This document shows, in pieces, positions 5,841 to 35,895 of a stretch of 64,000 bases of DNA; position 1 is the first letter of the stretch, and each line of letters opens with the position of its first letter. Under the pieces are notes generated by a model. The model was not told the origin of the DNA. It made no database searches and worked only from the letters and a program-made list of their open reading frames with translations. Made by a program: the position numbers and the translations under genes. Source of the DNA: Terriglobia bacterium (GTDB lineage Bacteria; Acidobacteriota; Terriglobia; Bryobacterales; UBA6623); assembly GCA_009841225.1 (NCBI GenBank), contig VXMF01000002.1, positions 65,426 through 129,425 on the forward strand. The letters run 5' to 3'.

Positions 5841-6037
5841 CCTCGACCGTGTCGGAGCATCGAAAGTGCCCCGTCGATGGACGGAGGCAATTTCGATTTA
5901 GCAGGTCATCGTCGTAGAGACCTGAAGGGCTTGGGAAATCACCGATGGAGAAGTAGCGATCGATCCAATAGCCTGACTACGGAACTCACGTCCTATGTCA
6001 TGCCGTAGCTCGACCGCACGCTCGCACCGAGTGCGGC

Positions 6038-6922: not shown

Positions 6923-6968
6923 GGGTGCTCTCCTTAAGTGAGCTAAGGCGCGGTGCCGGCCGTCGCAG

Positions 6969-8558
6969 TTACGTTCGGCGCCTTGGGTTGAAGTCTTCCT
7001 TGGCGTGGAACTGCCCCTTCGTGATTTCGGTTCCCGACTCGAGGTAGCTGTCGATCTTGGCCCCGAGTTCTGCCACGACGTCGGGGTGTTGATCCGCCAC
7101 GTTGGTCAGCTCGTCCGGATCGTCGGCCCGGTTGTAGAGCTGGGAGTCATAGTCATAGCCGAGCCTGCCGCGGTCGACGACCTTGGAGAACTGCCATTCT
7201 GCTGTACGGATGGCACCGATCCAGCCGTACTCTTGCACCAAGCCGTCGTGCGGGCTTGCCTCGCCGTTGACCAAGCCCCAGAGGTTCTTGCCCGTCGCGC
7301 GCGGCGGCGGATCCAGTTCCAGCAGGCTGAACAGCGTGGGCATCACGTCCGGGTGATGGACGAAGCCGGAGGCGCGCGTTCCAGCCTCCTCCTTGCCGGG
7401 CAGGCGCACCAAGAACGGGTTGTGGGTGACCTGCCTGCGAATGCGCGTCGGGCCCTTGAGGAACTCGCCCTGCTCGCCCAGCAGCGCGCCATGATCGGAG
7501 AAGAACACAACCACCGAGTTATCGAACAGGCCCAACTCCTCCAGGGTGTTCAGGATCTCTCCAATCCAGTAGTCGACGCACATCGATTCGCCGGCATAGT
7601 TGGCCCGCAACCTGTCGATGCCGGATTGAGGCACTTCGATGTTGGAGTACGGAGGTTCCCACCAAGTTGGACCCGTGGCGTCCGGCATGTACTCGTCTAG
7701 GAATCGCTTGGGCGGATCCCACGGCTCGTGCGGGTCGAACGCCTCTAGATGCAGGAAGAACGGGGTCTTGTCGTGATTCCGGCGTAGCCACTCAATGACT
7801 CTCTTGGCGGTGACTTCAATGATGGCCTCGCACTCGGTCTCGTAGCGCTTGCGGTTGGCCAAGAACTGCCGCATGAAGTCCGGACGTCCCGGGTCCAACT
7901 CGAGCCAGCGGTCCCAGTATTCCCTCGGGTAGTGCTCCGGCACGATGTCGTCATCGGACAGCTCCGCCGGGGCCTGCTCGTAGGAGTCGACCTCGTGGCC
8001 CCGAGCCCACTCGTAGTAGCTGTAGCCGCGGTGGAAGTTCTTGCCAGGCCGCTGGAGGTGTGGGATGTCGGCAATGAAGGCCGTGTGGTAGCCGGCCTCA
8101 AGAAGAGTCTCAGAGACTGTTTGGTCCTCGTAGTACAGTTCGTGCCAACCCGGAGTCTGGACCGGCTCGTGCTGATGAAAGTAGTGGTAGGGACAGATCC
8201 GCCGCCCTGTCATCAGCACGCGGCGGATGGGAATCGTCGGCATCCCTTCCGGGTAGCAGTCTTCGAAGACCACACAGTCCTCGGCGAACTTGTCCAAGCG
8301 CGGGCACCTGACCAAGCCGTTGCCCCCGTAGGCCTGGAGGTTGTCCGCGCGGAACGTGTCGGTGTTGAGGAAGATCAGATTCTGGCGGTTGCCCTTGCCC
8401 CGCTGGTCGGGCGGCCGTTCCCAGATGCCACCCGAGAGTCCAGCTTCAGTGGGTGCCGCGCAGCCGCTCAGGCCCGCTGCCGTGCCTGCCGCCGCGGCAG
8501 TGGTTCCTTGGGCCAGGAATCCACGCCGAGAGAGGTTGCCAGTTCTGGATTTCGCCAT
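6969..8558 (-). CDS. Sulfatase-fold (alkaline phosphatase superfamily) protein with a non-canonical active-site motif, Tat-exported
   Basis: 529 aa. Tat leader LSRRGFLAQG. The sulfatase N-domain layout is LIFLNTDTFRADNL..CPRLDKFAEDCVVFEDCYPEGMPTIPIRRVLMTGR. The FGly position reads T-I-P-I-R instead of C/S-x-P-x-R. The later FFSDHG motif is present. Confidence 0.85.
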   Translation of the reverse strand: MAKSRTGNLSRRGFLAQGTTAAAAGTAAGLSGCAAPTEAGLSGGIWERPPDQRGKGNRQNLIFLNTDTFRADNLQAYGGNGLVRCPRLDKFAEDCVVFEDCYPEGMPTIPIRRVLMTGRRICPYHYFHQHEPVQTPGWHELYYEDQTVSETLLEAGYHTAFIADIPHLQRPGKNFHRGYSYYEWARGHEVDSYEQAPAELSDDDIVPEHYPREYWDRWLELDPGRPDFMRQFLANRKRYETECEAIIEVTAKRVIEWLRRNHDKTPFFLHLEAFDPHEPWDPPKRFLDEYMPDATGPTWWEPPYSNIEVPQSGIDRLRANYAGESMCVDYWIGEILNTLEELGLFDNSVVVFFSDHGALLGEQGEFLKGPTRIRRQVTHNPFLVRLPGKEEAGTRASGFVHHPDVMPTLFSLLELDPPPRATGKNLWGLVNGEASPHDGLVQEYGWIGAIRTAEWQFSKVVDRGRLGYDYDSQLYNRADDPDELTNVADQHPDVVAELGAKIDSYLESGTEITKGQFHAKEDFNPRRRT

Positions 8559-8633
8559 TTCTGCGAAAGACTAGCACAACCGCCGATATCGATCAGAAGG
8601 CACCGGACGAACACATGCTGCCGGTCGTCTCGC

Positions 8634-22283: not shown

Positions 22284-22636
22284 GGGGGCGTACAGGATTC
22301 GACGAGATCGCAGTTGCTGCTTAGAGGCATGCCGGGTTCCGAGCACCCGTTAAACGATCGGAACAAAAGAACTGCCAACGACATGCAGTTTGCACACGCT
22401 GCCTAAGCTTAGGTAGCCGTCTTGGCCGCTGGGCTCGCACATCGGCACAAGACGTCATCTTGCGAGATAGGTTTCGAGGCTTCCGCCTGGAGTCTTGGGG
22501 CTGAGATCAATCAGGCTGGGCCGCAGGTCGCTTGTTCATTCACAGCCTGCAGTTGAGATCTTGGAATGAACTAAGCATGTAGGCTTTTTGCAGTGGCCTT
22601 TTTCGGACGCGGGTTCGATTCCCGCCGCCTCCACCA
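22284..22636 (+). ncRNA. ssrA: tmRNA (transfer-messenger RNA)
   Basis: The 5' end is GGGGGCGUACAGGAUUCGACG. The 3' end is GGACGCGGGUUCGAUUCCCGCCGCCUCCACCA. The acceptor stem GGGGGCG/CGCCUCC includes the G3:U70 alanine identity pair. A T-arm GGGUUCGAUUCCC is present, as is an internal tag ORF ending in ..AA-TAA. Confidence 0.95.
22374..22406 (+). other. tmRNA tag reading frame: (A)NDMQFAHAA-stop
   Basis: GCC AAC GAC ATG CAG TTT GCA CAC GCT GCC TAA. Same architecture as the E. coli ANDENYALAA tag; a second stop (TAG) follows 3 nt after the TAA. Confidence 0.7.
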
Positions 22637-22781
22637 TTTGAGGTTTCATGGGACACCAATCAGCTTCAGTGAGATCATTCAAACCACGGGCAAGCCCAGA
22701 CAACAGACTGCGAGACCACCTAGCTAAGTGCTACTATGACTTCGTCTATAGCCTAAAGCATCAACACTAGGCATATGAGGC

Positions 22782-23264
22782 ATGACCGGGACCGGCGAGC
22801 CGCTCGAATTCCCCGAGATGGAGCCAAGAGAATTCACCCAGCTAGCTGCATGGGCAAAATCAATGGCGGAAGGAAAGGGTGCGAGCTCTTCCGAAAGCCC
22901 CAAGGCGCGCCCAGCATTTGCCGGAACGCGAAGGCAATTGAGCGAGGACGAGCTCAAGTCGTCAGGCGTTCAGAAGCTCTTGCTGGAGGAGATTTACAAA
23001 CTCGACCAGGAGAACTCAGTACTCCAGAATTATCGAGAGAGGTTCCACGAGGCAGACAAGGATGTCGCCGTCCTGCAGTCCGAAAGAAAGAAGAGTGCCA
23101 AGCTGGAAGCACTGTACAGTCTCTCGCTGGCATCTGGCTCGATATTGATAGGACGAGCACTTCCTATGTTTGAGTCAGGAGACTCGTTCGGTGCATACGC
23201 GACAGGAGGACTAGGAATATTGCTATTGGGTGCTGCCATCCTGACAAAGGTGCTCGGAAAATGA
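22782..23264 (+). CDS. Hypothetical coiled-coil protein with two C-terminal TM helices (island gene A)
   Basis: 160 aa, about 50% GC. The central heptad-like region is KLLLEEIYKLDQENSVLQNYRERFHEADKDVAVLQSERKK. Then come the hydrophobic segments LYSLSLASGSILIGRALPMF and AYATGGLGILLLGAAILTKVL. The stop overlaps the next start (ATGA). Confidence 0.6.
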   Translation: MTGTGEPLEFPEMEPREFTQLAAWAKSMAEGKGASSSESPKARPAFAGTRRQLSEDELKSSGVQKLLLEEIYKLDQENSVLQNYRERFHEADKDVAVLQSERKKSAKLEALYSLSLASGSILIGRALPMFESGDSFGAYATGGLGILLLGAAILTKVLGK

Positions 23265-23647
23265 ATATCGAGATCGGAAATACCTACAACGCAGGTGAGC
23301 TGAACCTCGAATGCCTGTCGTTGCGCGTACGCGCGGATATTGATCTTGGCGACTATGTGCTTCTCTGCTCCAATTACCGGGCAGGAACCGTTACCAATGG
23401 TGTCCGTCATGCACTCTGGTTCGCGGATATGAGGATTCTAAAGGGAGATATCATCTTCGTCTTCACACGATCTGGCTCCTATGACCTGAGCACGTCAAAG
23501 GAGGGAACAAGGTTTCACTATATCTACTGGGGGCTCAAGGAACCGATCTGGAATGCAGACAACAGGGCACCAGTGCTGCTTCACGCCCCTATTTGGGAGA
23601 CCAAGCCACCGGATTCACTTCAAGCGAAGCCCTCAAAGGGCCCTTAA
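23261..23647 (+). CDS. Hypothetical small beta-rich protein (island gene B), possibly lamin-tail/Ig-like fold
   Basis: 128 aa, translationally coupled to gene A. The pattern E-x-LSLRVRADIDLGDYVLL...ILKGDIIFVFTRSG...IYWGLKEPIWNADNRAPVLL resembles the strand pattern of LTD domains, by eye only. Confidence 0.6.
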   Translation: MNIEIGNTYNAGELNLECLSLRVRADIDLGDYVLLCSNYRAGTVTNGVRHALWFADMRILKGDIIFVFTRSGSYDLSTSKEGTRFHYIYWGLKEPIWNADNRAPVLLHAPIWETKPPDSLQAKPSKGP

Positions 23648-23740
23648 TCGCCGCCAACTCCCTCGAGTCCAATTTTGTATTCTCGACCACATCCGTTGGT
23701 GCCGAAGACTCGACGGCAGGCACGTCGTCCACCGACTATC

Positions 23741-24691
23741 ATGAAATCGGGAACGGAAATGGCCCGGAGAGTCAGCTTTTCGCAGTTGCGCAGCAAGCTG
23801 CGGCAGGCCCAAGCCAAGCAAAAGCAGGCAATCGACAGATACAACCGTGAGGCACGGGCTCACAATCAGAAGGTCAAGTCGGCCGTTGCCAAGTACAACC
23901 AAGCAGTCAATCAATATAACTCACAGGTCCGCACGCATAACAGTCGCGTCCGCGCCAACCGGAACCGTCTGCGTCATGAGATCGAAAAGCTGGTGCGGGC
24001 GTCGTCAAAACCGGTCTACACGACGTTGAGAACATCCGCCGAGAACGTCCATCGCACGTACGTTCAACTCGAGTCCGACGCCGAGACTTCGCAGTACGAC
24101 AGCCGGTTCAACAAAGTCCTCGACCTCTCGGAGCGCGAGGCGGCCAACAACGCCAGCGTCATGAACGCGATGCTAGGGAATCCCGAGAGCGTAGACGGTC
24201 ACGAAAGCATCCAGTCGACTGCCCTCGATCCCATCCTCCAGCTAATCGGCACCGACTTATCTGAGCGATGGCATGGCGCTCTGTTCTCATTGAATCCCCG
24301 CAACCCGGATGCTGCACGGCACTTCTGTACGAGCGCACGAGAGCTCCTCTCGAGTATCCTAGACTCCCGAGCGCCAGATCTACTTGTCCTTGCCGAGATG
24401 CCTGCCTGCGAGAAGATGCCGAACGGCTCTCCCACGCGCCGGTCGAAGATCCGTTTCTTCCTCCAGCGGAGCAACATGGCCGAAAGAGCCCTAGAAGACT
24501 TCGTCGAAGAGGACATGAAGAACGTCCTGCAACTCTTTCGCGAGTTCAACGACGGCACTCATGGATCAGCGGGTCGCTTTTCCCTTGACCAACTGTTGGC
24601 AATCAAGAGAAGGGTCGAGCACGCCATAGAGTTTCTCTGGAGCATCATCCCGGACGACCTGCGGAACCCCCGCAGGCCAATCGCGCACTAG
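23741..24691 (+). CDS. Hypothetical protein (island gene C): Asn-rich coiled coil + C-terminal HEPN-like helical domain
   Basis: The ORF is 23675-24691 (TTG); ATG 23741 or 23759 is more plausible. The N-terminus is QAIDRYNREARAHNQKVKSAVAKYNQAVNQYNSQVRTHNSRVRANRNRL. The C-terminus is NPDAARHFCTSARELLSSILD ... LFREFNDGTHGS, an R-x6-H motif at 24539-24562, then ... IKRRVEHAIEFL. Confidence 0.6.
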   Translation: MKSGTEMARRVSFSQLRSKLRQAQAKQKQAIDRYNREARAHNQKVKSAVAKYNQAVNQYNSQVRTHNSRVRANRNRLRHEIEKLVRASSKPVYTTLRTSAENVHRTYVQLESDAETSQYDSRFNKVLDLSEREAANNASVMNAMLGNPESVDGHESIQSTALDPILQLIGTDLSERWHGALFSLNPRNPDAARHFCTSARELLSSILDSRAPDLLVLAEMPACEKMPNGSPTRRSKIRFFLQRSNMAERALEDFVEEDMKNVLQLFREFNDGTHGSAGRFSLDQLLAIKRRVEHAIEFLWSIIPDDLRNPRRPIAH

Positions 24692-25183
24692 CCTGGCACC
24701 AAACCTGCGTACTTCTCAGTTCCGCCGCAGACTACGAACCCACTTGAGCGGATCGGCCAGAAGCCGTCTCCAACCTGCTGCCCGGCGAAAGCTTGGCTCT
24801 AGAGGCTAGCCCAACTTGTTCTGGGGCATTCAGTTCAGAAATCCGTAGCGAACAGACTTCCGCAAATTCCCAATCCGCAAGTCCGGATACGAGGCTCACA
24901 GCCTAGAATTCATCCACGTCGACACCCTTGTTGTTGAGTGTGTGGGGTTGTGCGGCCCGCACACCCCTCGCCCGGCAGTTCCCAAGACCGCCAGCGCACC
25001 GAGTTGTGAGGCCTTGTCAAGGCAGCGTTCCACTTCGAGCGACTGCTCAAGGTGGATGTCCCACTCAACTTCCGCAGGGAGCAGTCGTTCAAACAGCTAG
25101 TGACCTGCGGCATGGACGCCGTGAAGGCGGTGGCAGGGTGGCACTAACCGGGTTGCTAGCATCCGAGTAGAATCGAAATTCTG

Positions 25184-25480
25184 ATGGACGTTAAGCGAAC
25201 TGAAGAGAAGCTACTGGCTGCGGAGCACAATTTGCGCGGCGCTGAAGCGCATGTTCACCGGACAGGGAAAGACTGGCGGGACGCAGAGGCGGCGTCGTAC
25301 AGTAACGAACGTCACCACAGATTGCGCAGAACGCACGGCGACAACTATCGGCAAGAGCTAAGAGACGCTTGGGACTCGGCGAGGAAATCATTCGACGATG
25401 CATGGGCGCGTCTTGAGAAGGCTAGAAGAGAACACGACGAAGCTATGGCCGCTAGCTGTGACCGACCAGAGTCAGGTTGA
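25184..25480 (+). CDS. Hypothetical all-helical charged protein (98 aa)
   Basis: ATG ORF with coiled-coil-like composition (EKLLAAEHNLRGAEAH.. ..DAWARLEKARREHDEAMA). It ends 50 nt before the IS left end. No family recognised. Confidence 0.35.
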   Translation: MDVKRTEEKLLAAEHNLRGAEAHVHRTGKDWRDAEAASYSNERHHRLRRTHGDNYRQELRDAWDSARKSFDDAWARLEKARREHDEAMAASCDRPESG

Positions 25481-25529
25481 CAAATCGAGCAGGGATGCGG
25501 GAGGCACGGTAAAGGTGCGATTCCTTAGA

Positions 25530-25574
25530 AGGGGAATTATATACGAACGTCCCGAAATTCCCGCTGAAATCGCT
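25530..25574. repeat. Left terminal inverted repeat of the IS1595-like element
   Basis: 42 identical positions, 1 mismatch and a 2-nt indel versus the right IR (see the mobile_element entry). Confidence 0.85.
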
Positions 25575-25762
25575 CACCGCCGGTCCCTCGGGCGCTTGAT
25601 CCGGCGGATGTTGACGGGGCGCAGCACCGCCTGAGCGACCTCCTCCATCGACGGCCGGGAGCCGTCGCGCTTGCGCAGCGCGAACTCCTCCCGCTTCTCC
25701 GCCATCGTCGGCTGGTACGCGCTGTCCACTAGCTCCACCGTCTTGCGCTTCGGCTTGCTCAT
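25574..25762 (-). CDS. Hypothetical small basic protein (62 aa), last gene of the IS cargo
   Basis: The ATGA start overlaps the upstream ORF. The stop codon (25574-25576) abuts the left IR. KRK/RRIKRPRDRR-rich ends; no recognised family. Confidence 0.45.
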   Translation of the reverse strand: MSKPKRKTVELVDSAYQPTMAEKREEFALRKRDGSRPSMEEVAQAVLRPVNIRRIKRPRDRR

Positions 25763-25980
25763 GGCCCCGAATTATACCGCTTGGGACGCCCGCCGGCCAG
25801 TTCCTCGCAACGCTCCAGGAACGCCTTGTACTCCTCGCCGTCCCGCATCTCTACCCGCCTGTCGTCCGGCAGGATGCAGACCGTCGGCTTGCCGGGGCAG
25901 GACTCGATGATCAGGCCGCTCAGCTTGTAGATGCGGAACGCCCTGTCCGTGTCGTGGAAGCGCTCGGGCGTCTTGGTCAT
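25759..25980 (-). CDS. Hypothetical protein (73 aa), IS cargo
   Basis: Starts 5 nt after the MTase stop and is coupled to the 62-aa ORF. No recognised family. Confidence 0.45.
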   Translation of the reverse strand: MTKTPERFHDTDRAFRIYKLSGLIIESCPGKPTVCILPDDRRVEMRDGEEYKAFLERCEELAGGRPKRYNSGP

Positions 25981-25984
25981 GCAA

Positions 25985-27469
25985 TCACGCGTCCAGCCCG
26001 CTCGCTCTAAGCTTCGCCATGAACGCTGCTTGGTCCATCGTGCCCTTTACTGAGTTGCAGTGGTTGCAGAGTAGCTGGAGGTTCTCCAAGTGGTCAGTGC
26101 CGCCTTTCGACTTGGCGACGACGTGATCGACCGTGAAGTTCTGGAACGGGAAGTGGTGGCCGCACCCGGCACACTTGCCCTCCTGCTTGCCGTAAAGAGT
26201 GTGCTTGTGCGTCTTGTACGGCGGGAGCTTGCCCACGTCTGTACGCCGCGGGATGTCCGTGCGGTGGATGACCTTCACAGCCTGCGTCGTGAAGTCCGTC
26301 TGCTGGCCCACGCGGTCCTGCTTCAAGCGGTGGACCATCAACTCGGCGGCCTTGGGGCTGATATCGATACCCGTCCACGACCGACCTAGGGCGTGCGCAG
26401 CGACGCAGGCCGTGGCGCAGCCGCAGAACGGGTCCAGCACCACATCGCCTTTTTCGGTGCTGGCTTCGATAATGCGGTTCAGGAGGGCGAGCGGCTTCTG
26501 TGTCGGGTAGCCGATTCGTTCCTTGTGGGCTCCCGAGAGCGAGCGGATGTCATTCCAGATATCCTGCACTGGAACTCCGCGCGACTCGTCAAGGTAGAGT
26601 TTCTTTCTGGCGTAGCCGGTCTTGGAGTAGTAGAGCCGTCCTTGGTCGTGCAACTTTTGCATGGTCTCCCGACTGTACCGCCACGATCTCGTGTGTCCGT
26701 TCCACTCATACTCGGGGTTGCCCTTGGCCGCTCCCCCGGGGCCGGTCATTGGAGTCGTTGCAAACTGCCTTCCTGTTTCCGGCTCTACATACCGATAGGT
26801 AGATTCCACGTACTGTCGATCTAGCGGAGCAAATACCTGGTTCCACGTCGGCTCCGGCCCTTTGGCGTAGAAAAGCAGTTTGTCGTGCACCCTGCCGAAA
26901 TGGCGAGACCCTTGGCCCACGTCGTTGTGCGCGCCGTATCGCCTCCATTGAATCTCGTTGCGGAAGTTCCCCGCGCCGAACACGCAGTCCATGACCAGCT
27001 TGAGATAGTGCGACGCCGTGGGGTCGCAATGTAGGTAGACGCTCCCGGCCGGCTTGAGCAGCCGCCGCATCTCCAATAGCCGCACGGCCATCATCACAAG
27101 GTACGATTTCATACCCTTGCCGTGGGCGATCCCGGCCGTGTCGATGACGTGGGGCAGGCAAGGCTCCTTCTCGGCTATTAGCCCGATCCAAGCGATATCT
27201 ACGTCATCCAGCGTCCACGTATCCTTGAAGGCGGCTCCCGCCGCTTCCGACCCGATGGGGGCACTGTACGTCCGGTTTGAGTTGAACGGCGGATCTAGGT
27301 AGATCAAGTCTACGGACTCCGAGTTCATGCCCCGCATAATGTCGAGGTTGTCCCCGGTCCAGATAGTCTGGTTCTTCCAGTTCGCTATCGCCATCAGATG
27401 GCCGTCAGTGTAGCGAAGCGGGGGAGGCCGAACGGGCGGAGGTTCTGGCGGGGCCAGCCCGAGGCTCAC
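25985..27469 (-). CDS. DNA methyltransferase (N6_N4_Mtase, beta-class, DPPF) fused to a C-terminal HNH endonuclease domain
   Basis: Motif IV is VDLIYLDPPFNSN near the N-terminus. Motif I is VVLDPFCGCATACVAAHALGRSWTGIDIS late in the sequence, which gives beta-class order. The C-terminal HNH is CAGCGHHF..FTVDHVVAKSKGGTDHLENLQLLCNHCNSVKG. GTG 27469 overlaps the transposase TGA (GTGA); ATG 27394 is the alternative start. Confidence 0.9.
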   Translation of the reverse strand: MSLGLAPPEPPPVRPPPLRYTDGHLMAIANWKNQTIWTGDNLDIMRGMNSESVDLIYLDPPFNSNRTYSAPIGSEAAGAAFKDTWTLDDVDIAWIGLIAEKEPCLPHVIDTAGIAHGKGMKSYLVMMAVRLLEMRRLLKPAGSVYLHCDPTASHYLKLVMDCVFGAGNFRNEIQWRRYGAHNDVGQGSRHFGRVHDKLLFYAKGPEPTWNQVFAPLDRQYVESTYRYVEPETGRQFATTPMTGPGGAAKGNPEYEWNGHTRSWRYSRETMQKLHDQGRLYYSKTGYARKKLYLDESRGVPVQDIWNDIRSLSGAHKERIGYPTQKPLALLNRIIEASTEKGDVVLDPFCGCATACVAAHALGRSWTGIDISPKAAELMVHRLKQDRVGQQTDFTTQAVKVIHRTDIPRRTDVGKLPPYKTHKHTLYGKQEGKCAGCGHHFPFQNFTVDHVVAKSKGGTDHLENLQLLCNHCNSVKGTMDQAAFMAKLRASGLDA

Positions 27470-28413
27470 ACCGTCAGCCTCGCACCCGAATCAAGCCCGT
27501 TAGGGGCGGTCAGATCCTTGTAGCGGAGCTGTCCGCCCTCCATCGCCCGAGCCATCGACCGCATCTGCTCGATGGTGTCCAGATCGCGGATGTTGTGGCG
27601 GCCCGCGAACTCGTCAACGTACCGCTGCAGGTGCTTCGGGCTCAGCTTGTGGAACGTGCCCTTATGCGCCCTCTTCAGGACCGCCCAGAATGACTCAATG
27701 CCGTTCGTGTGGGCCTGTCCCTTGACGTACTCGCCGACGGTGTGATTCACCGCTTCGTGGTCCATCCCCGGCATTCCCGCGTAGGACGGGTTGCCGTCCG
27801 TGTAGGCCGTCGCTCCGGGCTTCGCGCTGTCCTGTACGAAGCTCTGAAGCGTCGGCTTGTCCGCGGTATCGACCGTCTTCGCTGCGACCTTGTTGCTGGC
27901 CTGATCCTTCGCTCCGACCACCACCGCCTTGCCCACGGGACCGCGACCGCCCTTGAGCTTCTTGGACTCGTGCTTGTTCTTCTCCTGCCCTCCGAAGTAG
28001 GTCTCGCCGACCTCTACCGGACCATCGAACGGGGCCGCTTCGGGATCGGCCTTCCACGCCCTGCGGACGCGGTGGGCTAGGAACCAAGCGGTCTTCTGGG
28101 TGATGCCCAGATCGCGGTGGAGCTTCATGCTGGAGACGGACTTGAGATTGGTGGAGGCGAGGTACATGGCGTAGACCCAATCGCGGTACTTGACCTTCGC
28201 GCCCTCCATGAACGTGCCCGTCCCGACGTTGAACTGCTTGCCGCAGACCTTCTCGCGGCAGCGGAACGCGGCGCGCTTGCGCTTCGCGCCCGTCTGTACG
28301 TTGACGGAGCCGCACTCCGGGCAGCAAATCCCGTCTGGCCAGCGCTGCTTGACCAGCCACTTCTCGGCGGCATCATGGTCCGGGAACATCTGGAAGAACT
28401 CGGCAACGCTCAT
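27466..28413 (-). CDS. IS1595 family (ISXO2-like) transposase, first catalytic Asp replaced by Gly
   Basis: N-terminal Zn-ribbon: CPECGS..FRCREKVCGKQF. The DDE_Tnp_IS1595 core is VEVGETYFGG (family consensus VE[IV]DETY), AYTDGNPSY, HTNGIESFWAVLKR. Confidence 0.9.
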   Translation of the reverse strand: MSVAEFFQMFPDHDAAEKWLVKQRWPDGICCPECGSVNVQTGAKRKRAAFRCREKVCGKQFNVGTGTFMEGAKVKYRDWVYAMYLASTNLKSVSSMKLHRDLGITQKTAWFLAHRVRRAWKADPEAAPFDGPVEVGETYFGGQEKNKHESKKLKGGRGPVGKAVVVGAKDQASNKVAAKTVDTADKPTLQSFVQDSAKPGATAYTDGNPSYAGMPGMDHEAVNHTVGEYVKGQAHTNGIESFWAVLKRAHKGTFHKLSPKHLQRYVDEFAGRHNIRDLDTIEQMRSMARAMEGGQLRYKDLTAPNGLDSGARLTV

Positions 28414-28477
28414 GCCCTTGCGGAACGCCTTTCCCGGTCCCTTCTTAGTAATCGTTATATCAACCTCTTACGCTCTA

Positions 28478-28507
28478 ATTATACAACAGTGTCCCGAAGC
28501 CCGTCAA
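28478..28507 (-). promoter_or_regulatory. Putative transposase promoter TTGACG-N18-TATAAT
   Basis: The minus strand reads cgcTTGACGggcttcgggacactgttgTATAATtagag. The -35 box is at 28502-28507, adjoining the right IR. The -10 box is at 28478-28483. The ATG lies about 65 nt downstream. Confidence 0.5.
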
Positions 28508-28549
28508 GCGATTTCAACGGGAATTTCGGGACGTTCGTATAATTCCCCT
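28507..28549. repeat. Right terminal inverted repeat of the IS1595-like element
   Basis: Reverse complement matches 25530-25574. Its inner edge overlaps the -35 box of the transposase promoter by 1 nt (position 28507). Confidence 0.85.
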
Positions 28550-28719
28550 CAGAAGCCCCTCCACCTCGGCAATCTTGGCATACTCGCAACTTCATCCAGA
28601 TTCTGTGGGCAATCATCGGAAGCTCCGGTCGAGACGGGCCCGAGTAATCACTGTGGTCGTGCAATTGATTCCGAGATTGGCGTTTCTTTCCCTCAGGCAG
28701 GTTGTCCAACTACGTCGGA

Positions 28720-29718
28720 CTACACACCAACGTCCTTGAGGCTTGCGAGCCGAGAGAACACGTCGTTGAAGACCAAGTCGCGATTGCAGTTGTTCGCGAC
28801 TCGGATGTCGTGCCGGCCGGATGCGGTTTCCCAACGCATGTCGTCGGTCAACATGGGGCTTGAGACGATCTCCGAGGGGACCCAGGCAGGGTTGTTCAGC
28901 CATGCGATCGCGGAAATATCCCAGATGACCTTGGAATACGGAAATCCGGTGTTGCGTCCCTTGGTCCTTACAGCCTGGTACTGGAGAAACTGGCCATACA
29001 GGTAATCTCCTATCCGCGAGCGCCCGCGTAGGAATTGCTGCAGCTCGGAGGCCGTAGTCTTCAGATGCTCGGAGACGTTCTTGGTCGGGATCTGGACCAA
29101 GGGAACTCCGCTGTCGAACAACACTTGTGAGGCGATCACGTCTTGCTGCAGATTGAACTCCCTCGCAGAAGGCCAATAGTGCGTCGTACCTCCGAGCCAG
29201 ACGACAACAATCTTCTCCTTGATCTTCGGCTCCATCAGAATGGCTGAAGATACGTTCACAGGGCAGCCGATGGTCAGAACATAGAGCGGTTCGTCGCTGG
29301 ATTTCAGCGCCTTCTCGATCAGGTCGCGCGCGGCATCACTCTCGACCGGCCGCCCCTTCCCTTCCATGAATTGGCTTGAGCCACGGAACACGTTGCCTGG
29401 GTCGGCTTCGGCGAAGAAGCCCAGCAGCCGCAGGATTTCCTCGTAGCTCTTCTCCATTCCGACAGCAGCGGATGGCGAGCGATCGTTGACGAACGGCGCG
29501 GCGTAGATCGCCTCAATCGACAATCGCTCCGGCGACAGCAAGCTGTAGGCAACCGCATATTGGTCGTCAATCTCGTTGTACGTGTCCGTATCCAGTACAG
29601 CTCTCACTCGACCCGGGCCAGGAATGGCTAGCAGACGGTCGAGACCGCCGGTCTGAGCTTGGGCGGAAGCGGCCAATGTGCCGGCGGCGGCCTGCATGAA
29701 CGTACGTCGAGAAGTCAT
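28720..29718 (-). CDS. Nucleoside hydrolase (inosine-uridine preferring, IUNH family), Tat-exported
   Basis: Tat leader TSRRTFMQAAAG. The N-terminal Asp cluster is VLDTDTYNEIDDQYAVAY (DxDxxxDD signature). Confidence 0.85.
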   Translation of the reverse strand: MTSRRTFMQAAAGTLAASAQAQTGGLDRLLAIPGPGRVRAVLDTDTYNEIDDQYAVAYSLLSPERLSIEAIYAAPFVNDRSPSAAVGMEKSYEEILRLLGFFAEADPGNVFRGSSQFMEGKGRPVESDAARDLIEKALKSSDEPLYVLTIGCPVNVSSAILMEPKIKEKIVVVWLGGTTHYWPSAREFNLQQDVIASQVLFDSGVPLVQIPTKNVSEHLKTTASELQQFLRGRSRIGDYLYGQFLQYQAVRTKGRNTGFPYSKVIWDISAIAWLNNPAWVPSEIVSSPMLTDDMRWETASGRHDIRVANNCNRDLVFNDVFSRLASLKDVGV

Positions 29719-29934
29719 ATCGATCGCAGCGATAGTATCACGGAAGCGGAAGATTCATCGGCCGCGTCTCGTCTCGTTCGGATTCCGCGCCAAGGAGCTA
29801 GAACGCGTGACTTTCAATGCCCCATACAGTGCCATTTCCTTGCACCGCGAGCGAGTAGTCGGGATAGCTTGCAGAGCATCTGCAAGCAAGGCTACGTTTC
29901 GCCGGAGCACACTTGGCAGCGGGTTAAGCCTGAT

Positions 29935-32202
29935 CTACGACCTCGGCAAGGATACAGCGATACGGATTATCGTGACCGAATGCTCTGGGAACTCGTACTC
30001 GAATCGAGGGCCGGGAATCGGAAATTCCGACCTGCGACTTGAGACGAGGTTCGGTTCCGAAAATGTGTTCGCTGTCTCGAGCGTCGCCGCCGTCACTGTC
30101 GTCGCTGTCCCCTTGTTTCCCAGCTGTCCCTCGATCCCCTCCAGTTCGACCCTCGCACGAATGGGATCCTCGGCCGATGTGTTCACGACCTTGAGAAACA
30201 ATTCAGTGCCCTCGTCATTTGCAGTGACGGATACATCAAGCGCCGGTACTGCAGTGCCCAGCGAAGGGTCGCCGGGATCGTATTCAACACCGCATTCAAC
30301 ATCAGACTTCAGGCGCCAATCGCCGCGATGGCCGTTGTACGCCTCGATGACCGAATATGTCGCAGTCGTGAACACATCGTGCCGGCTGGCTTGAATCACA
30401 CCGCCCGGCCAGCCGTTCACCAAGTCGGACACGGCGCTCATGCGGATCAGGTCACCCTGCCGTTCGAAGACGTTCATCAAGCGGGCTCCGTACAGCGCTG
30501 ATTCCATCGTGTGCTGGCGCGGAATGCCGAATGTGGTGTTCCACTCGTTCAGCGCCACGCCGATTTCCCTGCCCGGCACGATCTCACGAATCATGTCTCG
30601 GATCTGTCCGTAGAGGCGTTCGTACCAAAGAGGCCTGGCCATGAGAGCCGCGTATCCGGGCGGATCGCCTTTCTTCGGTCGGTAGTGGTGAATCGCGAGC
30701 AGATCGATTTCGCTCCCGATCTCCGTCAGTACAGTGCGGTTCCAGCTCGGGTCTTCGTCTCCGACCGCGATGATCTTGATCGACGGATCGACGGCATTCA
30801 TCGCCCGGATGTAGCGCCGCGCGTTCGCAGCGTAGGTGGCGGCATCCGAGTGTCCACGTACCCAGTCTCCCCAGATCTCATTGCCGATCTCCCAGTAGAC
30901 GACGCCAAAGGGCTCTGGATGCCCGTGCTTCGCCCTCATCGCCCCGTAAGGCGTGGAAGCGTCTCCATTCACGTATTCGACCCAGTTGGCAGCCTCTTGG
31001 GCAGTCGCAGGACGCGAGTCAATGCGGATGTCCTTGCCCGCGGCCCGCAGTTCCGCTGCCTCAGGCACCGTCACGCCGCGTCCCTCGGCATTCACGACTA
31101 TGTTCGGCTCAGCACCGATGCTCGCGCAAAATTCCAGATACTCAATGGTGCCGAAGTCTGCTGGCTCAGGATCGTTGTCCCATGACATGTTGACCCAGAT
31201 CGGACGTTCGTCCCGAGGGCCTATGCCCCATTCCCAGTGGTAGTCCTGTGCCACGTTTCCGCCTGGCCATCGCACGAATGCTGGCTGTAGCGCTCGCACC
31301 TTCTCGAGTACGTCCGCTCGGATCTCGTTGACAGCGTCACTGGGCGTTAATGAGACTTGGTCAATCCAGATTGCACCGACCCCATACATCCGAAAGACAA
31401 ACCTCGCCAGCGGATCGGACTCAGAGGCTGGCAACTCGAACTCGAAGCGTGCCCATTCGCTCGGAATGTCACTCAGCTCATGGACTGCGTAGATCTTTCC
31501 GCCGGAACGGTCCTCCTCCAAGGAAACACGCACCGAACCCTCGAAGGCATCGGACACAGAGAGTCCGTCCGCAGTCCGCTCGACACCTCCGGCACGCAGC
31601 CAAACGGATCCGCTGTAGGTCAGGCCGGAGCGTACAGGAATTGCCGACTGGTAGATGCCATGACCCATCTGTTCTGGCAGCGAGTTGACCAGGACCTGGG
31701 CACGGTTCTCGAAGGAAGTCGGGTAACCTTGCTCGGAGGCTCCGATGGACTTGCCTCCCATCAGGAATCCATTGGCGTGATTGCGTGTGTCCGGATAGCG
31801 CTCCCAGTAGTGGGCCGCTGCTGGCGGTGGGGCGACATCCTCGAATCCGCGGTTCACGATCAATTCCGCCCAGAGGCCACCCTTGATGTCTTCGAACATG
31901 AACTCGGCGAACTGCCCGTAGAGCAGGTCGCTGATGGGGTTTAGGCGTTGAGAAGCGTCGATTCGGATCGTAGCCTCAACCATCCCCTCATCAACATTGG
32001 GCGGCCCTCCACCACAGGAACAGAGGACGGAGGCGGCAAGAACTGACGCCAGCGGGCCGACAAGCCGACATCCGCTCGACGGGCGGCTAGACCACAAGGG
32101 GAAGATCTCTTCAAGAACCGGAATGAGCATTACGTTTGAGCCAGACAGCTGCACCGCCACCTTACCGCATGCCTCGCGAGCTACGGGCTGGATGTACTTC
32201 AA
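29935..32202 (-). CDS. Alpha-L-arabinofuranosidase (GH51) with an N-terminal carbohydrate-binding-like region
   Basis: AELIVNRGFED, FVRWPGGNVAQDYHWEWGIGPRDERP, YWEIGNEIWGDW (acid/base GNE), LNEWN (nucleophile region), and an Alpha-L-AF_C-like C-terminal beta-sandwich. The start may be the internal ATG 32130. Confidence 0.85.
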   Translation of the reverse strand: MKYIQPVAREACGKVAVQLSGSNVMLIPVLEEIFPLWSSRPSSGCRLVGPLASVLAASVLCSCGGGPPNVDEGMVEATIRIDASQRLNPISDLLYGQFAEFMFEDIKGGLWAELIVNRGFEDVAPPPAAAHYWERYPDTRNHANGFLMGGKSIGASEQGYPTSFENRAQVLVNSLPEQMGHGIYQSAIPVRSGLTYSGSVWLRAGGVERTADGLSVSDAFEGSVRVSLEEDRSGGKIYAVHELSDIPSEWARFEFELPASESDPLARFVFRMYGVGAIWIDQVSLTPSDAVNEIRADVLEKVRALQPAFVRWPGGNVAQDYHWEWGIGPRDERPIWVNMSWDNDPEPADFGTIEYLEFCASIGAEPNIVVNAEGRGVTVPEAAELRAAGKDIRIDSRPATAQEAANWVEYVNGDASTPYGAMRAKHGHPEPFGVVYWEIGNEIWGDWVRGHSDAATYAANARRYIRAMNAVDPSIKIIAVGDEDPSWNRTVLTEIGSEIDLLAIHHYRPKKGDPPGYAALMARPLWYERLYGQIRDMIREIVPGREIGVALNEWNTTFGIPRQHTMESALYGARLMNVFERQGDLIRMSAVSDLVNGWPGGVIQASRHDVFTTATYSVIEAYNGHRGDWRLKSDVECGVEYDPGDPSLGTAVPALDVSVTANDEGTELFLKVVNTSAEDPIRARVELEGIEGQLGNKGTATTVTAATLETANTFSEPNLVSSRRSEFPIPGPRFEYEFPEHSVTIIRIAVSLPRS

Positions 32203-32363
32203 TTCCTAGTCGGCAGGGCGATTCAACGAGGGAACGAATTGCGTCTGACGCTATAGCCATCGCACACCCTCCCAGTCGTACCTGCTTCATCGCACCGCAA
32301 AACTAGCAGTCTTTGGTTCGAGCTCCCCTGCCGAAGATGCAAGATATCCAAATTTCAACTGAC

Positions 32364-32392
32364 TTGAAATCAGTTATTATTTGATGTAAAAT
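32364..32392 (+). promoter_or_regulatory. Putative sigma70 promoter TTGAAA-N17-TAAAAT upstream of fic; the -35 box sits inside a 7-bp-arm inverted repeat
   Basis: Read directly in an AT-rich block. atttcaaCTGACttgaaat (32352-32370) overlaps the -35 box. The ATG lies 22 nt after the -10 box. Confidence 0.45.
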
Positions 32393-32413
32393 CGATTACA
32401 AATTGACGTCGCT

Positions 32414-33541
32414 ATGCTGTTCACCTATCACTCTCTGGATGATCAAGAGAAACGAGTGGAGCAGGCTACCGCCCGTATCCGATCCGATCTGCGTCTGCTC
32501 GTAGCTGCAGAGCCGCGGCGATGGACAGGTTGGCTCGCGCGCATGACGAGGGCTCGCGCCCTTGCCGCATCGAACAGCGTGGAAGGTATCAACGTATCTC
32601 ACGACGACGCGATCGCTGCGATCGACGGTGAAGATCCCGCGAACACGGATCGTGACACGTGGCGAGCGGTCATCGGCTACCGCGAGGCCATGCACTATAT
32701 CCTGCAGCGCCGTCAGAGCCCATCATTCAGGATTACGGAAGACGTGCTCTTGGCCGTTCATTTCATGATCTGCCAATCCGATCTAGCGGCGCATCCTGGC
32801 CAGTACCGTCCCGGATGGGTTGGAGTTAGAAACGCTCAAACCGGGAACCTATTACACGAAGGTGTAGATAGGGGCGAACTAGAGCCCCGCATCCAAGAAC
32901 TTCTCCAGTATGTGAATGAAGGAGATGTTGAGTCGCTCTTTCTGCGAGCGGCTATGACGCACCTAAACCTGGTGATGCTGCATCCATTCACCGATGGGAA
33001 CGGGAGAACGGCCAGATGCATCCATACCGCAGTATTGGCAACTGACGGAATCGTCGCTCCGGAATTCTCTTCCATCGAAGAGTACGTTGGCTACAACCAA
33101 CAGGAGTACTACGACGTGCTTTCAGAAGTCGGGGGTGGCGGGTGGAATCCAACGCGCAACGCAAAGCCGTGGGTGCGCTTCTGCTTGAGTGGCCACTACA
33201 GACAGTCGCAGACAATCCTTCGTAGGACGAGAGAGATCGAAAGGATCTATGCGGAGTTGCTAAACCTAGTTCAACACAACGGTTTCCCCGAGCGCACTGT
33301 GATGGCGCTGCTCCAAGCTGCGTTCGGGAGAGTACGGAACTCGTCCTACCGTGTTAGTGCAGATGTCTCCAACAATCTCGCCAGCCGAGACTTGAAGATG
33401 CTCGTTGATGCCGGATTACTGATCTCGGACGGCGAGAAGCGAGGACGCTATTACGTCGCCGGACCCAGAGTCGGAGAGATTCGCCGTAGATTCCGTCTAC
33501 CTAGAGGCGTCGACGATCCCTTCGCGACAGGTTGGCCGTGA
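32414..33541 (+). CDS. Fic/DOC family protein (class II, N-terminal inhibitory motif) with a C-terminal wHTH-like region
   Basis: The active site HPFTDGNGRTARC matches HxFx(D/E)GNGRxxR. The N-terminal SNSVEG matches the (S/T)xxxE(G/N) auto-inhibition motif. Confidence 0.9.
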   Translation: MLFTYHSLDDQEKRVEQATARIRSDLRLLVAAEPRRWTGWLARMTRARALAASNSVEGINVSHDDAIAAIDGEDPANTDRDTWRAVIGYREAMHYILQRRQSPSFRITEDVLLAVHFMICQSDLAAHPGQYRPGWVGVRNAQTGNLLHEGVDRGELEPRIQELLQYVNEGDVESLFLRAAMTHLNLVMLHPFTDGNGRTARCIHTAVLATDGIVAPEFSSIEEYVGYNQQEYYDVLSEVGGGGWNPTRNAKPWVRFCLSGHYRQSQTILRRTREIERIYAELLNLVQHNGFPERTVMALLQAAFGRVRNSSYRVSADVSNNLASRDLKMLVDAGLLISDGEKRGRYYVAGPRVGEIRRRFRLPRGVDDPFATGWP

Positions 33542-33590
33542 TCGCCGGGGCCGGAAGGCGCGGCAAGTTCACCTAGCGCTGGCTCGCCCT

Positions 33591-34328
33591 TCAGTTTGAT
33601 TTGAGCTTCCGGCGAATCAGCTGTGCGGTGTTCGCGGCCAGCAGTGCCGATGAGTCCTTGGAGAAATGTACGTTGTCAGGCCGCACGTGCGGGACGTTGT
33701 GATCCCTAATAAATAAGTTCATGTCGTCGACTTCAATACCGTGCCGCTGGATCACTTTCCTCGCCGCCGCGTTGTACTTCGCCAAGTCTGCTGGCACCCG
33801 CCCTTGGGCTCCCTCAGGCACCGGTGTGGTGGGACGCCAAATCAGCGTTGCGCCGGTCTGATTCAGCCGCTGGAGCAGTTTCTCCAAATTCGCCGCATAC
33901 TCGCCCACCGTGCTGACCTGCTTGCCCTTGGGCGGGAGTGCGAGCTTGCCCTCTTCATCTACATACTTGAGGTCATGCAGGCCCCAGTTGAAGTGGATTA
34001 GGTCCCACTTCCCGTCCCCTAGCCACTGGTCGATGGACTCGAGACCCTTCCACGTGTGCGCGCAGTTCGTCGGCGGGCGGTGCACGTTGGCGATTCCGTC
34101 AAGCGCCGCACGCAATGGCAGAGTGTAGCCGATCGAAATGGAATCCCCGATGATCAGCACCCTAGGAAGTGCGGGGTCATCTACGACCGGGGCGAATTCG
34201 GCTCTTGGTGTGTTTTGGCCGACCGCGGCTGTGACGAACAGAGCGGTCGCTAGCGCGATACGGAAGATGCACGATCCTTGCCTCGGGCCAAACCGCTTGT
34301 ATCCAGCGATTTGAAAGAAGATGCTCAT
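33591..34328 (-). CDS. SGNH/GDSL-type hydrolase (secreted)
   Basis: VLIIGDSISIGY (block I Ser), NWGLHD, plus a signal-like leader IALATALFVTAAVG. ATG 34328 was chosen because the longer ORF (to 34442) would overlap the upstream sulfatase 3' end. Confidence 0.8.
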   Translation of the reverse strand: MSIFFQIAGYKRFGPRQGSCIFRIALATALFVTAAVGQNTPRAEFAPVVDDPALPRVLIIGDSISIGYTLPLRAALDGIANVHRPPTNCAHTWKGLESIDQWLGDGKWDLIHFNWGLHDLKYVDEEGKLALPPKGKQVSTVGEYAANLEKLLQRLNQTGATLIWRPTTPVPEGAQGRVPADLAKYNAAARKVIQRHGIEVDDMNLFIRDHNVPHVRPDNVHFSKDSSALLAANTAQLIRRKLKSN

Positions 34329-34344
34329 CTCTTTTGTCACCGTT

Positions 34345-35895
34345 TCACTCGGCCTGGTCACCGGCCGCGGAGTACAGATCCCCGCTACCTTCGGTAACGC
34401 CGGGTAGCGCAGCTTTCCACCCGTTCCGCAGGACGGCGGCAAGGCGGTCCATGGTGGGCTGGTGCTCTGGATCGCCAGCTAGGTTGTCGTACTCCCTGGG
34501 ATCATTTTCCAGATCGTATAACTCGAATTGCGGGTCATCATCGCCCTCGAGCGGCGTCCACTCGGTAAAGCGATACCGGGCAGTGCGCACTGACCGCCCA
34601 TGTGCGCCGCGCCGCTGCGCTTCCGAGAAAATCGCGCTCTTCCAAGGAACGTCCGGGTCTTCGAGCACGGGCCGGAAGCTGATGCCCTCCATGCCCTCGG
34701 GAGACGGCAGTCCACAGAGGTCGGCCAAGGTCGGGTAAAGGTCAACAAGCTCAACCAACGCGCTGGTGCTCCGGCCGGACACTCCGCCAGGTATCCGCAC
34801 GATCAATGGAACTCTCGTCGATTCCTCGAACTGCGTGTGCTTGCGCCATAGCCCGCCGTGCTCTCCGAGATGGAAGCCGTGGTCGCTCACGAAGACCACA
34901 ATGGTGGAGCTCTCTAGTTCAAGTTCAGCCAACGCCTCCATCAGCAAGCCGACTTGGACATCCATCAGAGTGATCGTCGCGTGATAGGCGGCAATCGCTT
35001 GGCGCACCTGCTCCTCGCTGTGGTCCTTGTCTTCCGGGTAGTTGCCTAGCGCCGGGGCCGGAATGTCGGCAGTGTCGTCTGCCGGCTCGTCCGGCAGGGC
35101 GACTTCCGAGATGGGGTGCTGTTGGAAGAACTCTTTGGGCGCGACCCACGGCTGGTGCGGTTTGTGGAAGCCTGCCGCGATAAAGAACGGCCCGTCCCGG
35201 TTCTCCCGCAGCAGTTCAATGACACGCCGCGTGGTTTGGCCGTCGGGGGTCTCGGCTTCGGTCTCGTCGGTGGCCCGCCAACTCAACGGCATCCCGGTAG
35301 GACGGTCTAGGTACCCCAAGATGTCTGCCCGCGAGAGGCCATCGTTTGAACCCTCGATCCACGTGTTGTCACGGACCTCGGAATGGTCCACTCCTGGAAG
35401 GTAGTGCTCCCGCCGGGTGGCATTCTCGGAGACGTCCCATTTGACGGCTGCTTCGTACCTGCCATGGGCTACCTTCCCTACCCTTGCGGTGAAGTATCCG
35501 TGTTCGTCGAAGTATTCGGGCAGCATCACGACGTCGCCTAGGTGACTGCGCGGCTCTACGAAGTTTCCGTAGACATTCGTGGTCGCAGGTCGGCGGCCGC
35601 TGAGGAAGGATGTCCGAGACGGGTTGCAAACGGGATCTTGTGCGTAGGCCCTGTCGAATTGCACTCCCTGAGATGCAAACCGGTCGAGGTTGGGGGTCTT
35701 GGCTGTCGGATAGTCGTGATACGTGCCCAGCGCAACGTTCAGGTCGTCGACGACGATGAACAGCACATTGGGTTGTTCCGGCAGTGCGGCAGTCTCGGGC
35801 GCAGAGCATGCCCCAAACAGGAGGCACAGGCAGGCCGCAGCCAGCACCGTCACCTGCAATTGTGAGAATAGGTGGGAGATTCGGCGTTGATGCAT
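34345..35895 (-). CDS. Sulfatase (S1 family, Cys-type; iduronate-2-sulfatase-like)
   Basis: NVLFIVVDDLN, CNPSRTSFLSGRRP (C-x-P-x-R), VFVSDHGFHLGEHG. Confidence 0.9.
   Translation of the reverse strand: MHQRRISHLFSQLQVTVLAAACLCLLFGACSAPETAALPEQPNVLFIVVDDLNVALGTYHDYPTAKTPNLDRFASQGVQFDRAYAQDPVCNPSRTSFLSGRRPATTNVYGNFVEPRSHLGDVVMLPEYFDEHGYFTARVGKVAHGRYEAAVKWDVSENATRREHYLPGVDHSEVRDNTWIEGSNDGLSRADILGYLDRPTGMPLSWRATDETEAETPDGQTTRRVIELLRENRDGPFFIAAGFHKPHQPWVAPKEFFQQHPISEVALPDEPADDTADIPAPALGNYPEDKDHSEEQVRQAIAAYHATITLMDVQVGLLMEALAELELESSTIVVFVSDHGFHLGEHGGLWRKHTQFEESTRVPLIVRIPGGVSGRSTSALVELVDLYPTLADLCGLPSPEGMEGISFRPVLEDPDVPWKSAIFSEAQRRGAHGRSVRTARYRFTEWTPLEGDDDPQFELYDLENDPREYDNLAGDPEHQPTMDRLAAVLRNGWKAALPGVTEGSGDLYSAAGDQAE

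Follow-up and report, generated by a model that had tools for sequence, protein, structure and literature searches.

A probable passenger-carrying IS1595-family insertion sequence with a methyltransferase-HNH fusion gene in an Acidobacteriia bacterium

We have analyzed a 3016-bp element (positions 25532-28547) in a 64,000-nucleotide stretch of a Terriglobia bacterium genome (assembly GCA_009841225.1, contig VXMF01000002.1, positions 65,426 to 129,425), the whole of which is hereafter called the window. The element is very likely an insertion sequence (IS) derivative of the IS1595 family that carries a gene for a DNA methyltransferase (MTase) fused to an HNH domain (MTase-HNH), and that moved as a unit, leaving an 8-bp target-site duplication. 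IS derivatives with passenger genes are termed transporter IS (tIS) and were first described for the IS1595 family (PMC3129680; see also bioRxiv 10.1101/2021.05.26.445724). The element and its edges are laid out as follows, with strands given as + or -.

25524-25531: target-site duplication, left copy, CTTAGAAG, identical to 28548-28555 at 7/8 positions
25532-25574, +: transposase-distal terminal inverted repeat (IR), 43 nt, with the tip GGGAATTATATAC, placed by IR alignment; the tip is common to the related loci L095-L110 and L116
25762..25574, -: orf62, a small conserved protein of 62 aa and backbone component, with its stop abutting the distal IR
25980..25759, -: orf73, a rare 73-aa open reading frame (ORF) and extra passenger, with an ATGA overlap with orf62
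27394..25985, -: beta-class DNA MTase with C-terminal HNH domain, 469 aa from ATG 27394, assigned by Pfam and homologue alignment
27469..25985, -: the same gene from an alternative start, GTG 27469, which gives 494 aa
~26339-27313, -: MTase domain
~26570-26953, -: variable target-recognition region
~26021-26173, -: HNH domain
28413..27466, -: IS1595-family DDE transposase (tnp), 315 aa from ATG 28413, assigned by Pfam and NCBIfam
28507..28478, -: sigma-70-like promoter, TTGACG, 18-nt spacer, TATAAT, matching 11/12 consensus positions; its -35 box lies at the inner IR boundary
28525-28532 and 28491-28498, -: 8-bp dyad, GTCCCGAA / TTCGGGAC, around the -35 box, with pairing kept in relatives
28507-28547, -: transposase-proximal terminal IR, 41 nt, placed by IR alignment
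28548-28555: target-site duplication, right copy, CTCAGAAG, identical to 25524-25531 at 7/8 positions

The ends of the element were fixed by setting the IR tip at GGGAATTAT, as in relatives. This tip is present at both ends, and the IRs start with GG, as is characteristic of the IS1595 family. The two arms are identical at 40/41 aligned positions and differ in addition by one 2-nt TA indel, and the window contains exactly two occurrences of a 21-nt IR core, as against 0 expected from 100 shuffles. An initial annotation of this DNA had reported near-perfect terminal IRs of 43-45 bp; the repeats are real, although their arms measure 43 and 41 nt and end at 25532 and 28547. The 1-2 nt by which they had seemed longer come from the duplication, the first two bases of which are CT and the last two AG. 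The same annotation had offered the flanking hexamers TTAGAA and TCAGAA as a weak, imperfect duplication. These form the core of a duplication whose true length is the canonical 8 bp, and the 7/8 match of CTTAGAAG and CTCAGAAG has, by our own arithmetic, a chance probability of ~4e-4 per register. IS1595-family elements are described as having a DDE domain, a zinc finger at the N-terminus (with IS1016 as the one group that has none), 8-bp target duplications and normally a single gene (PMC8101967), and the window element shows the duplication at 7/8 positions. The insertion site is intergenic and lies between the stop codons of two convergent genes. One is an ORF of 98 aa that ends at 25480, and the other encodes a nucleoside hydrolase and has its stop at 28720; the gap between them is a harmless place for an insertion.

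Assignment to the IS1595 family, as first proposed, is borne out by the transposase as well as by the IR tip and the duplication. The protein matches DDE_Tnp_IS1595 (Pfam PF12762; 9.5e-38, 130 bits against a cut-off of 27), Zn_ribbon_IS1595 (Pfam PF12760; 1.1e-07, 32.1 bits against a cut-off of 25.4) and transpos_IS1595 (NCBIfam NF033547; 2.5e-53). It contains the motifs ...NGIESFWAVLK..., in which E is followed by K seven residues on, and ...DEFAGR..., in which E is followed by R four residues on. The ORF listing gives exactly four ORFs between the IR arms (tnp, MTase-HNH, orf73 and orf62), all on the minus strand; their number and common orientation are as originally described. A classical IS consists of a single transposase gene without passengers (PMC8101967); three further ORFs lie inside these IRs, and on that account we class the element with the tIS derivatives and not with the simple IS, with MTase-HNH and orf73 as passengers between the transposase and the distal IR. 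The initial annotation had contrasted the cargo with typical IS1595 members, which it described as carrying the transposase only. The published family description likewise gives a normally single gene; tIS, however, are an already established category.

The cargo protein matches the Pfam families N6_N4_Mtase (1e-39) and HNH (1.3e-12), in agreement with its first description as an MTase-HNH fusion. At least 8,000 proteins belong to its family at E <= 1e-5, and the 120th match is still 62% identical. Nearly all of the 120 homologues listed are 457-470 aa long and align from ATG 27394, so that this ATG is probably the true start, and probably that of the family as a whole, in place of the GTG that overlaps the transposase stop. 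The GTGA overlap of tnp and MTase noted at the outset exists in the sequence but is thus probably not a real start, even though a 4-nt overlap of the two ORFs does occur in some relatives (L029, L031, L095). The remaining tight junctions are present as claimed, with a 4-nt gap from the MTase stop to the orf73 start and the ATGA overlap between orf73 and orf62. Across 26 homologues that are 61-94% identical, DPPF, DPFxGCAT (DPFCGCAT) and CxxC...DH...N...CxxC are invariant, including the HNH residues D448, H449, N463 and N472 (494-aa numbering) and both CxxC pairs, and the catalytic motifs of MTase and HNH both appear intact in one polypeptide. Comparison with an 84%-identical copy at locus L090 gave 147 synonymous and 31 nonsynonymous codon changes; the gene is under strong purifying selection.

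In sequence and fold searches, the nearest proteins are beta-class MTases and Type III Mod subunits (Type III Mod, CcrM, M.RsrI). The structure model of MTase-HNH has a mean pLDDT of 68 with a poorly modelled HNH part, and it yielded only generic methylase fold matches. The HNH domain shows profile similarity to the HNH domains of IscB and Cas9, and the PADLOC matches include an 'orphan methyltransferase' model. Identity to some homologues is uneven along the protein. For P0007 it amounts to 97% over the N-terminal part and 88% over the HNH domain, but to 37% over the middle domain; at L093/L094 the N-terminal and HNH parts are 85-97% identical to the window protein and the target-recognition middle 34-37%. 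The mosaic identity at L093/L094 looks like a swap of the specificity domain. Some genomes hold at least two MTase-HNH paralogues close together (L067, L021, L046). At L067, from a Flammeovirgaceae genome, tblastn gave two full-length matches (6001-7305 and 8940-10280, in the region 6001-10650), and blastn located a 129-nt segment at four places there, which is suggestive of additional tandem copies. Among plasmids of cultured bacteria, most methylase matches end before the HNH domain and the best transposase matches are only 38-42% identical.

The initial annotation had proposed that the cargo is mobilised as one unit, and this is supported by the copy at L090, by 10 more distant, IR-bracketed relatives and by multi-copy sister elements. 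L090 lies in another Acidobacteriia genome and at a different locus, where MTase, orf73 (81 aa), orf62 and the distal IR are found at 84% nucleotide identity. It has no transposase, and a solo distal IR is kept beside orf62. An Mrr-type nuclease gene lies upstream (4814-5650, -) and a phage-type integrase gene downstream (7701-8855, -). The Mrr-type restriction nucleases act on modified DNA, and the site of the L090 cargo looks like a small defence or mobility island.

One genome per species was scanned for MTase-HNH loci, and the best 80 of 592 confirmed loci, chosen by MTase-HNH alone, were compared; the record titles place them in at least 12 phyla. An IS1595 transposase directly adjoins MTase-HNH in approximately 15 of the 80. 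This is the sole recurrent family among the immediate neighbours, the others being assorted housekeeping genes, and no recurrent partner nuclease gene, Res included, was found beside the 80 homologues. IR pairs bracket transposase and MTase in 10 loci (L009, L026, L029, L033, L041, L043, L049, L064, L065 and L075), with perfect 8-bp duplications in L033, L043, L049, L064 and L075 and a 7/8 duplication in L029. Loci that have no transposase mostly have no flanking IRs. For 14 linked pairs, pairwise identities of transposases and of methylases were not significantly correlated (Mantel r=0.18, p=0.13), and gene orientation differs between the elements; this points to repeated exchange or capture of the cargo, and a single ancient capture with strict co-inheritance was rejected on the Mantel result. 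Many of the locus titles name Poribacteria, Poriferihabitaceae or Porisulfidus, which are presumably sponge-specific lineages, and we infer a sponge association for the MTase-HNH loci and for the Acidobacteriia bacterium of the window. The IR at L009 (5257-5313 / 8984-9041, by BLAST) runs ~33 nt past the expected IS tip GGGGATTAC; insertion of that element into a different palindromic repeat, or ends other than those expected, could account for this.

A second group of relatives is recognized by orf62, and those among them with transposases 57-88% identical to that of the window have the IR tip GGGAATTATATAC and always end in an orf62 homologue. One of these is L115, with a transposase 88% and an orf62 86% identical to those of the window and ~4.7 kb of different cargo between them, including an HNH remnant and a reversed MTase-HNH gene. 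L093 and L094 have decayed transposases followed by MTase-HNH, and L113/L114 keep only the HNH end, with orf62 directly after it. A sister element found at at least 8 sites is ordered as IS1595 transposase (57% identical), D12-class methylase with HNH, and orf62 homologue. Its D12 protein matches Pfam MethyltransfD12 (1.8e-32) and HNH, and BLASTP found no similarity between this methylase+HNH and the MTase-HNH of the window. At L095, the D12 methylase+HNH is one 524-aa ORF (2443-4017), and at L096-L102 it is split into overlapping ORFs of 282 and 246 aa (2442-3290 and 3277-4017); the difference could be a frameshift, decay or an assembly error. Another member, present at 8 sites, has a transposase, opposite-strand genes of no known family and an orf62 homologue. 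L116, 2504 bp long and flanked by a perfect TTGGTGAG duplication, carries three ORFs of no known family and an orf62 homologue by the distal IR. Perfect 8-bp duplications were likewise found in L098, L100, L105, L107 and L116; target duplications have no common sequence across elements. In the multi-copy sister elements, the IR tips differ very little from those of the window element, and at least seven lineages repeat the gene order that closes with orf62 and the distal IR.

These comparisons define a shared backbone. It opens with the proximal IR, at whose inner edge the promoter lies, and continues through the zinc-ribbon/DDE transposase and the cargo slot to orf62 and the distal IR. In all the related elements that were examined (L093, L094, L095-L102, L103-L110, L113/L114, L115 and L116), no other gene separates orf62 from the distal IR. 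It keeps this position in elements with varied cargo, and orf62 is thus a backbone gene of this IS lineage and not cargo. The cargo of about 2 kb that was first described, with two small ORFs in it, must be revised to that extent, although MTase-HNH and orf73 stand as passengers. A profile built from six orf62-like ORFs retrieved 2,273 proteins of ~60-68 aa, none with a Pfam domain, that have the motif KPK..TVELV.S.YQP.KAE.EE...R.I.KPR.RR. The AlphaFold model of orf62 has a beta-alpha-alpha-beta fold (pLDDT 78), and Foldseek gave no match to it with E below 8. The constant position and orientation of orf62 suggest, with low confidence, an accessory or regulatory factor of transposition. A scan of JGI metagenomes with the profile gave two loci (L113/L114), apparently the same remnant. 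At L116, the orf62 homologue (6574-6822, +; E=8e-26 against the profile) was not called in the source annotation; genes of this family are easily missed by annotation.

In contrast to orf62, orf73 is best treated as an extra passenger. Its homologues comprise 8 cluster representatives among 1.84 billion proteins, on contigs too short to show gene context, and it is linked to MTase only in the window and at L090/L091. It is absent from L113/L114 and L093, where orf62 lies directly 3' of the MTase-HNH gene or its remnant. With 29 nonsynonymous and 11 synonymous codon changes relative to L090, orf73 evolves fast. Neither small ORF has a domain match in Pfam, NCBIfam or PADLOC. A toxin-antitoxin pair formed by orf73 and orf62 was considered and rejected, because no toxin or antitoxin domain was found in these databases and orf62 occurs without orf73 in all other lineages.

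The near-consensus promoter reported next to the right IR was recovered as listed above, and its position is conserved, with TTGAC and TA-rich boxes at the same place in L098, L106, L115 and L116. In L098 and L106, the dyad around the -35 box reads CTTCCGAA / TCGGAAG, so that both arms are altered and pairing is retained; it could be a candidate transposase-binding site or regulatory hairpin. No terminator-like sites were found inside the element, and an Rfam scan gave no RNA family within it.

Several observations weigh against the reading of the element as a tIS mobilised together with its cargo. The search for additional copies or an empty site that the initial annotation had proposed was unsuccessful: exact-protein look-ups returned only the same locus and thus no second intact copy of the exact element, the relatives described above lying at other sites. 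No empty site was found in look-ups with the transposase, methylase and nucleoside hydrolase, for which the joined flanks were not themselves searched; such a site would read ...GGTGCGATTCCTTAGAAG + CCCCTCCACCTCGGCAATC. About 80% of the MTase-HNH genes (~65/80) are solitary, with neither transposase nor IRs, so the gene also spreads or persists without the IS1595 vehicle. The window copy has lost the canonical ATG of its transposase and may be non-autonomous. As regards function, no domain or fold was recognised in orf62 or orf73, and no characterised methylase-HNH fusion was found in PDB sequence or fold searches or in the literature searched.

The transposase start bears on whether this copy still moves. 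In relatives, the start lies ~13-15 codons upstream of ATG 28413; in L115 it reads ATG GAA ACT ACT AAG, as compared with ATA ACG ATT ACT AAG in the window (28444-28458, minus strand). The canonical start is therefore lost in this copy, with ATA in place of ATG. The NCBI record of the identical protein, 'IS1595 family transposase [Acidobacteriia bacterium]', has 330 aa and begins at this ATA (28458). Taken with the mismatch in the duplication and the occupation of the same site in every assembly that holds the element, this loss indicates that the copy is probably old and fixed. An alternative with a considerable, though less than even, chance of being right goes further and holds that the copy is an immobile relic with cargo domesticated by the host, a reading that is compatible with a tIS origin and competes only with present mobilisation. 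The difference between the IRs (an indel and a mismatch) is in keeping with it, as is the fact that neither the IR nor any of the four proteins has a further copy within the window. Yet all four ORFs are intact, the IRs remain 40/41 identical and the near-consensus promoter is present, and either the ATG 15 codons downstream or the ATA annotated by NCBI could still give an active protein.

On the preferred reading of a mobile tIS, the transposase would act on the two IRs, move everything between them and make the 8-bp duplication, and the four genes would probably be read as one operon from the promoter at the IR edge. The exchangeable middle domain of MTase-HNH would determine a short motif for methylation, and the protein would cut DNA on which this mark is missing. 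Such restriction-modification (R-M)-like activity would protect the host from foreign DNA while securing for the element a selfish hold on that host. We give about equal weight to the truth and the falsity of the specific proposal that MTase-HNH is a self-contained, single-protein R-M-like enzyme. The proposal is based upon the domain mosaicism, the paralogues per genome, the lack of partner genes and the reported enrichment of sponge metagenomes in type II/III R-M components (PMC9531527).

Two other functions were weighed for the cargo. It is unlikely that MTase-HNH is instead an orphan methylase for epigenetic regulation, with HNH as a DNA-binding or degenerate module and the element as a mere vehicle. 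That view would account for the lack of a recurrent partner restriction gene, for the orphan model among the PADLOC matches and for the cell-cycle regulator CcrM among the closest solved folds. It sits poorly with the invariance of the catalytic and zinc-binding HNH residues, and the shuffling of the middle domain between near-identical proteins, together with the several paralogues in L021, L046 and L067, fits diversifying R-M specificity better than a housekeeping regulator. TnpB and IscB nucleases aid IS200/IS605 elements, and Dam methylation times IS10 transposition. By analogy, the fusion might serve the transposon itself, either because HNH cuts DNA lacking the element or the mark and repair then spreads the element, or because methylation of the ends times transposition; we hold this to be a little less probable still than the orphan methylase. 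Two unrelated methylase classes, each with a fused or following HNH, occupy the same slot of the same transposase lineage, the ORFs are tightly coupled to the transposase (with the 4-nt overlaps in L029, L031 and L095), and the HNH domain resembles that of IscB and Cas9, all of which this idea would explain. However, the same backbone transposes with other cargo and no methylase, which means that movement does not require the fusion; the majority of MTase-HNH genes have no transposase at all, and the duplications share no sequence that a homing nuclease could use.

Accidental juxtaposition, in which a plain IS1595 element landed by a resident MTase-HNH operon while the distal repeat represents either a solo IR or one end of a further copy, is very improbable: the solitary MTase-HNH genes, the L090 cargo without a transposase and the uncorrelated phylogenies of transposase and methylase would suit it, but the duplication lies around the 3-kb unit in its entirety rather than around just the transposase, the order ending in orf62 and the distal IR recurs in the lineages counted above with perfect duplications around whole units, and the L090 cargo still has the distal IR attached.

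As a tIS, the element resembles published examples such as ISNha5 (Siguier, Gagnevin & Chandler 2009, as cited in PMC3129680, PMC11891212 and bioRxiv 10.1101/2021.05.26.445724) in its IS-like IRs, zinc-ribbon/DDE transposase, 8-bp duplication and passengers downstream of the transposase. The passenger of ISNha5 (IS1595 family) is a transcription regulator according to a review, which also gives methyltransferases as passengers in the IS1380 family (PMC11891212). The window element differs from the tIS in the cited papers in that its passenger is a methylase-HNH, methylase passengers being cited there only for IS1380-family elements, and from tIS as described in that its lineage has a conserved small distal ORF, the orf62 family. 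In ISfinder, an ISNwi1 subgroup has the IR tip ggnnatTAT, the residues DDEK and ER4 and passenger-carrying variants of 1.75-4.75 kb; by eye, the tip GGGAATTAT, the DDEK/ER4 residues and the 3.0-kb size of the window element would fit, and the element is a candidate member. No description of IS1595 elements with a methylase-HNH, of the orf62 family or of an association of IS1595 with sponge microbiomes was found in the literature searched, outside which the 2009 IS1595 paper lies. What appears to be new here is the pattern among relatives, with MTase-HNH and IS1595 together across phyla and with varied cargo.

The cargo, in turn, invites comparison with R-M systems, units of which behave as selfish mobile elements. 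Like mobile or single-chain (Type IIC/IIG-like) R-M systems, it combines a methylase and a nuclease that move together, an exchangeable specificity domain, a patchy distribution over phyla and paralogues. In the single-chain R-M enzymes known to us, the nuclease is of the PD-(D/E)XK type and the methylase of the gamma class. Unlike those enzymes, the window protein is, as read from sequence alone, a beta-class, Mod-like methylase with a C-terminal HNH. It shares with Type III Mod (EcoP15I, Mbo45V, H. pylori Mod) and with CcrM, M.RsrI and M.BceJIV the order of motifs, DPPF before FxGxG, and a central target-recognition insert. In contrast to Type III Mod, it has an HNH fused to it in place of a Res helicase-nuclease partner, and identity is only 15-20%. 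A Type III R-M system was rejected on the ground that a Res gene is absent from the element and is not recurrent beside the 80 homologues. Elements of the IS200/IS605-IS607 type with TnpB or IscB also carry a non-transposase nuclease (HNH in IscB) aboard a transposon, but the likeness is an analogy only, in that the window element has no guide RNA as judged by Rfam, a different transposase chemistry and a methylase to supply recognition.

Passenger-carrying IS1595 elements are known yet little studied. Added interest lies in the orf62 backbone gene, the methylase+HNH cargo of two unrelated classes and the spread across phyla in one habitat. The backbone of an IS1595 platform is now defined, and its small protein has more than 2,000 members, is unannotated and is sometimes not called as a gene. 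Such a platform would be a concrete mechanism for the movement of methylase-nuclease genes among unrelated bacteria that share a host, and the cargo has an apparently uncharacterised architecture in which a Mod-like or Dam-like methylase is fused to HNH. Should the protein prove to be a single-protein R-M enzyme whose specificity domains can be exchanged, it would be of interest for the biology of defence systems and for enzyme discovery. As a speculation that we think is probably not correct, it is hypothesized that the IS1595 lineage with the GGGAATTATATAC tip and orf62 is a dedicated cargo-slot platform that preferentially spreads methylase+HNH of at least two unrelated classes across the phyla of the sponge microbiome; that MTase-HNH is a new single-protein R-M enzyme, in which a beta-class or D12 methylase guides HNH, as well as an addiction or retention module; and that orf62 is a new accessory of transposition.

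The surroundings of the element within the window were also surveyed. A tmRNA gene (22284-22636, +) lies ~2.9 kb from the element. The stretch 22637-25500 has a GC content of 0.51-0.58, compared with ~0.60, and small ORFs of no known family, and it looks like a small variable islet beside ssrA. An integration island at the tmRNA gene was considered and rejected, as a search for att-like repeats of the tmRNA 3' end gave none. At 23759-24691 (+), a 310-aa protein has the domain pP_pnuc_1 ('predicted pPIWI-associating nuclease', 2.2e-43), and no Argonaute or pPIWI gene is evident among its called neighbours. On the other side of the element, the region 29700-35000, as seen in L001/L087, encodes a Fic-domain protein, sulfatases, a GDSL lipase and an alpha-L-arabinofuranosidase, a content typical of sponge-associated heterotrophs.

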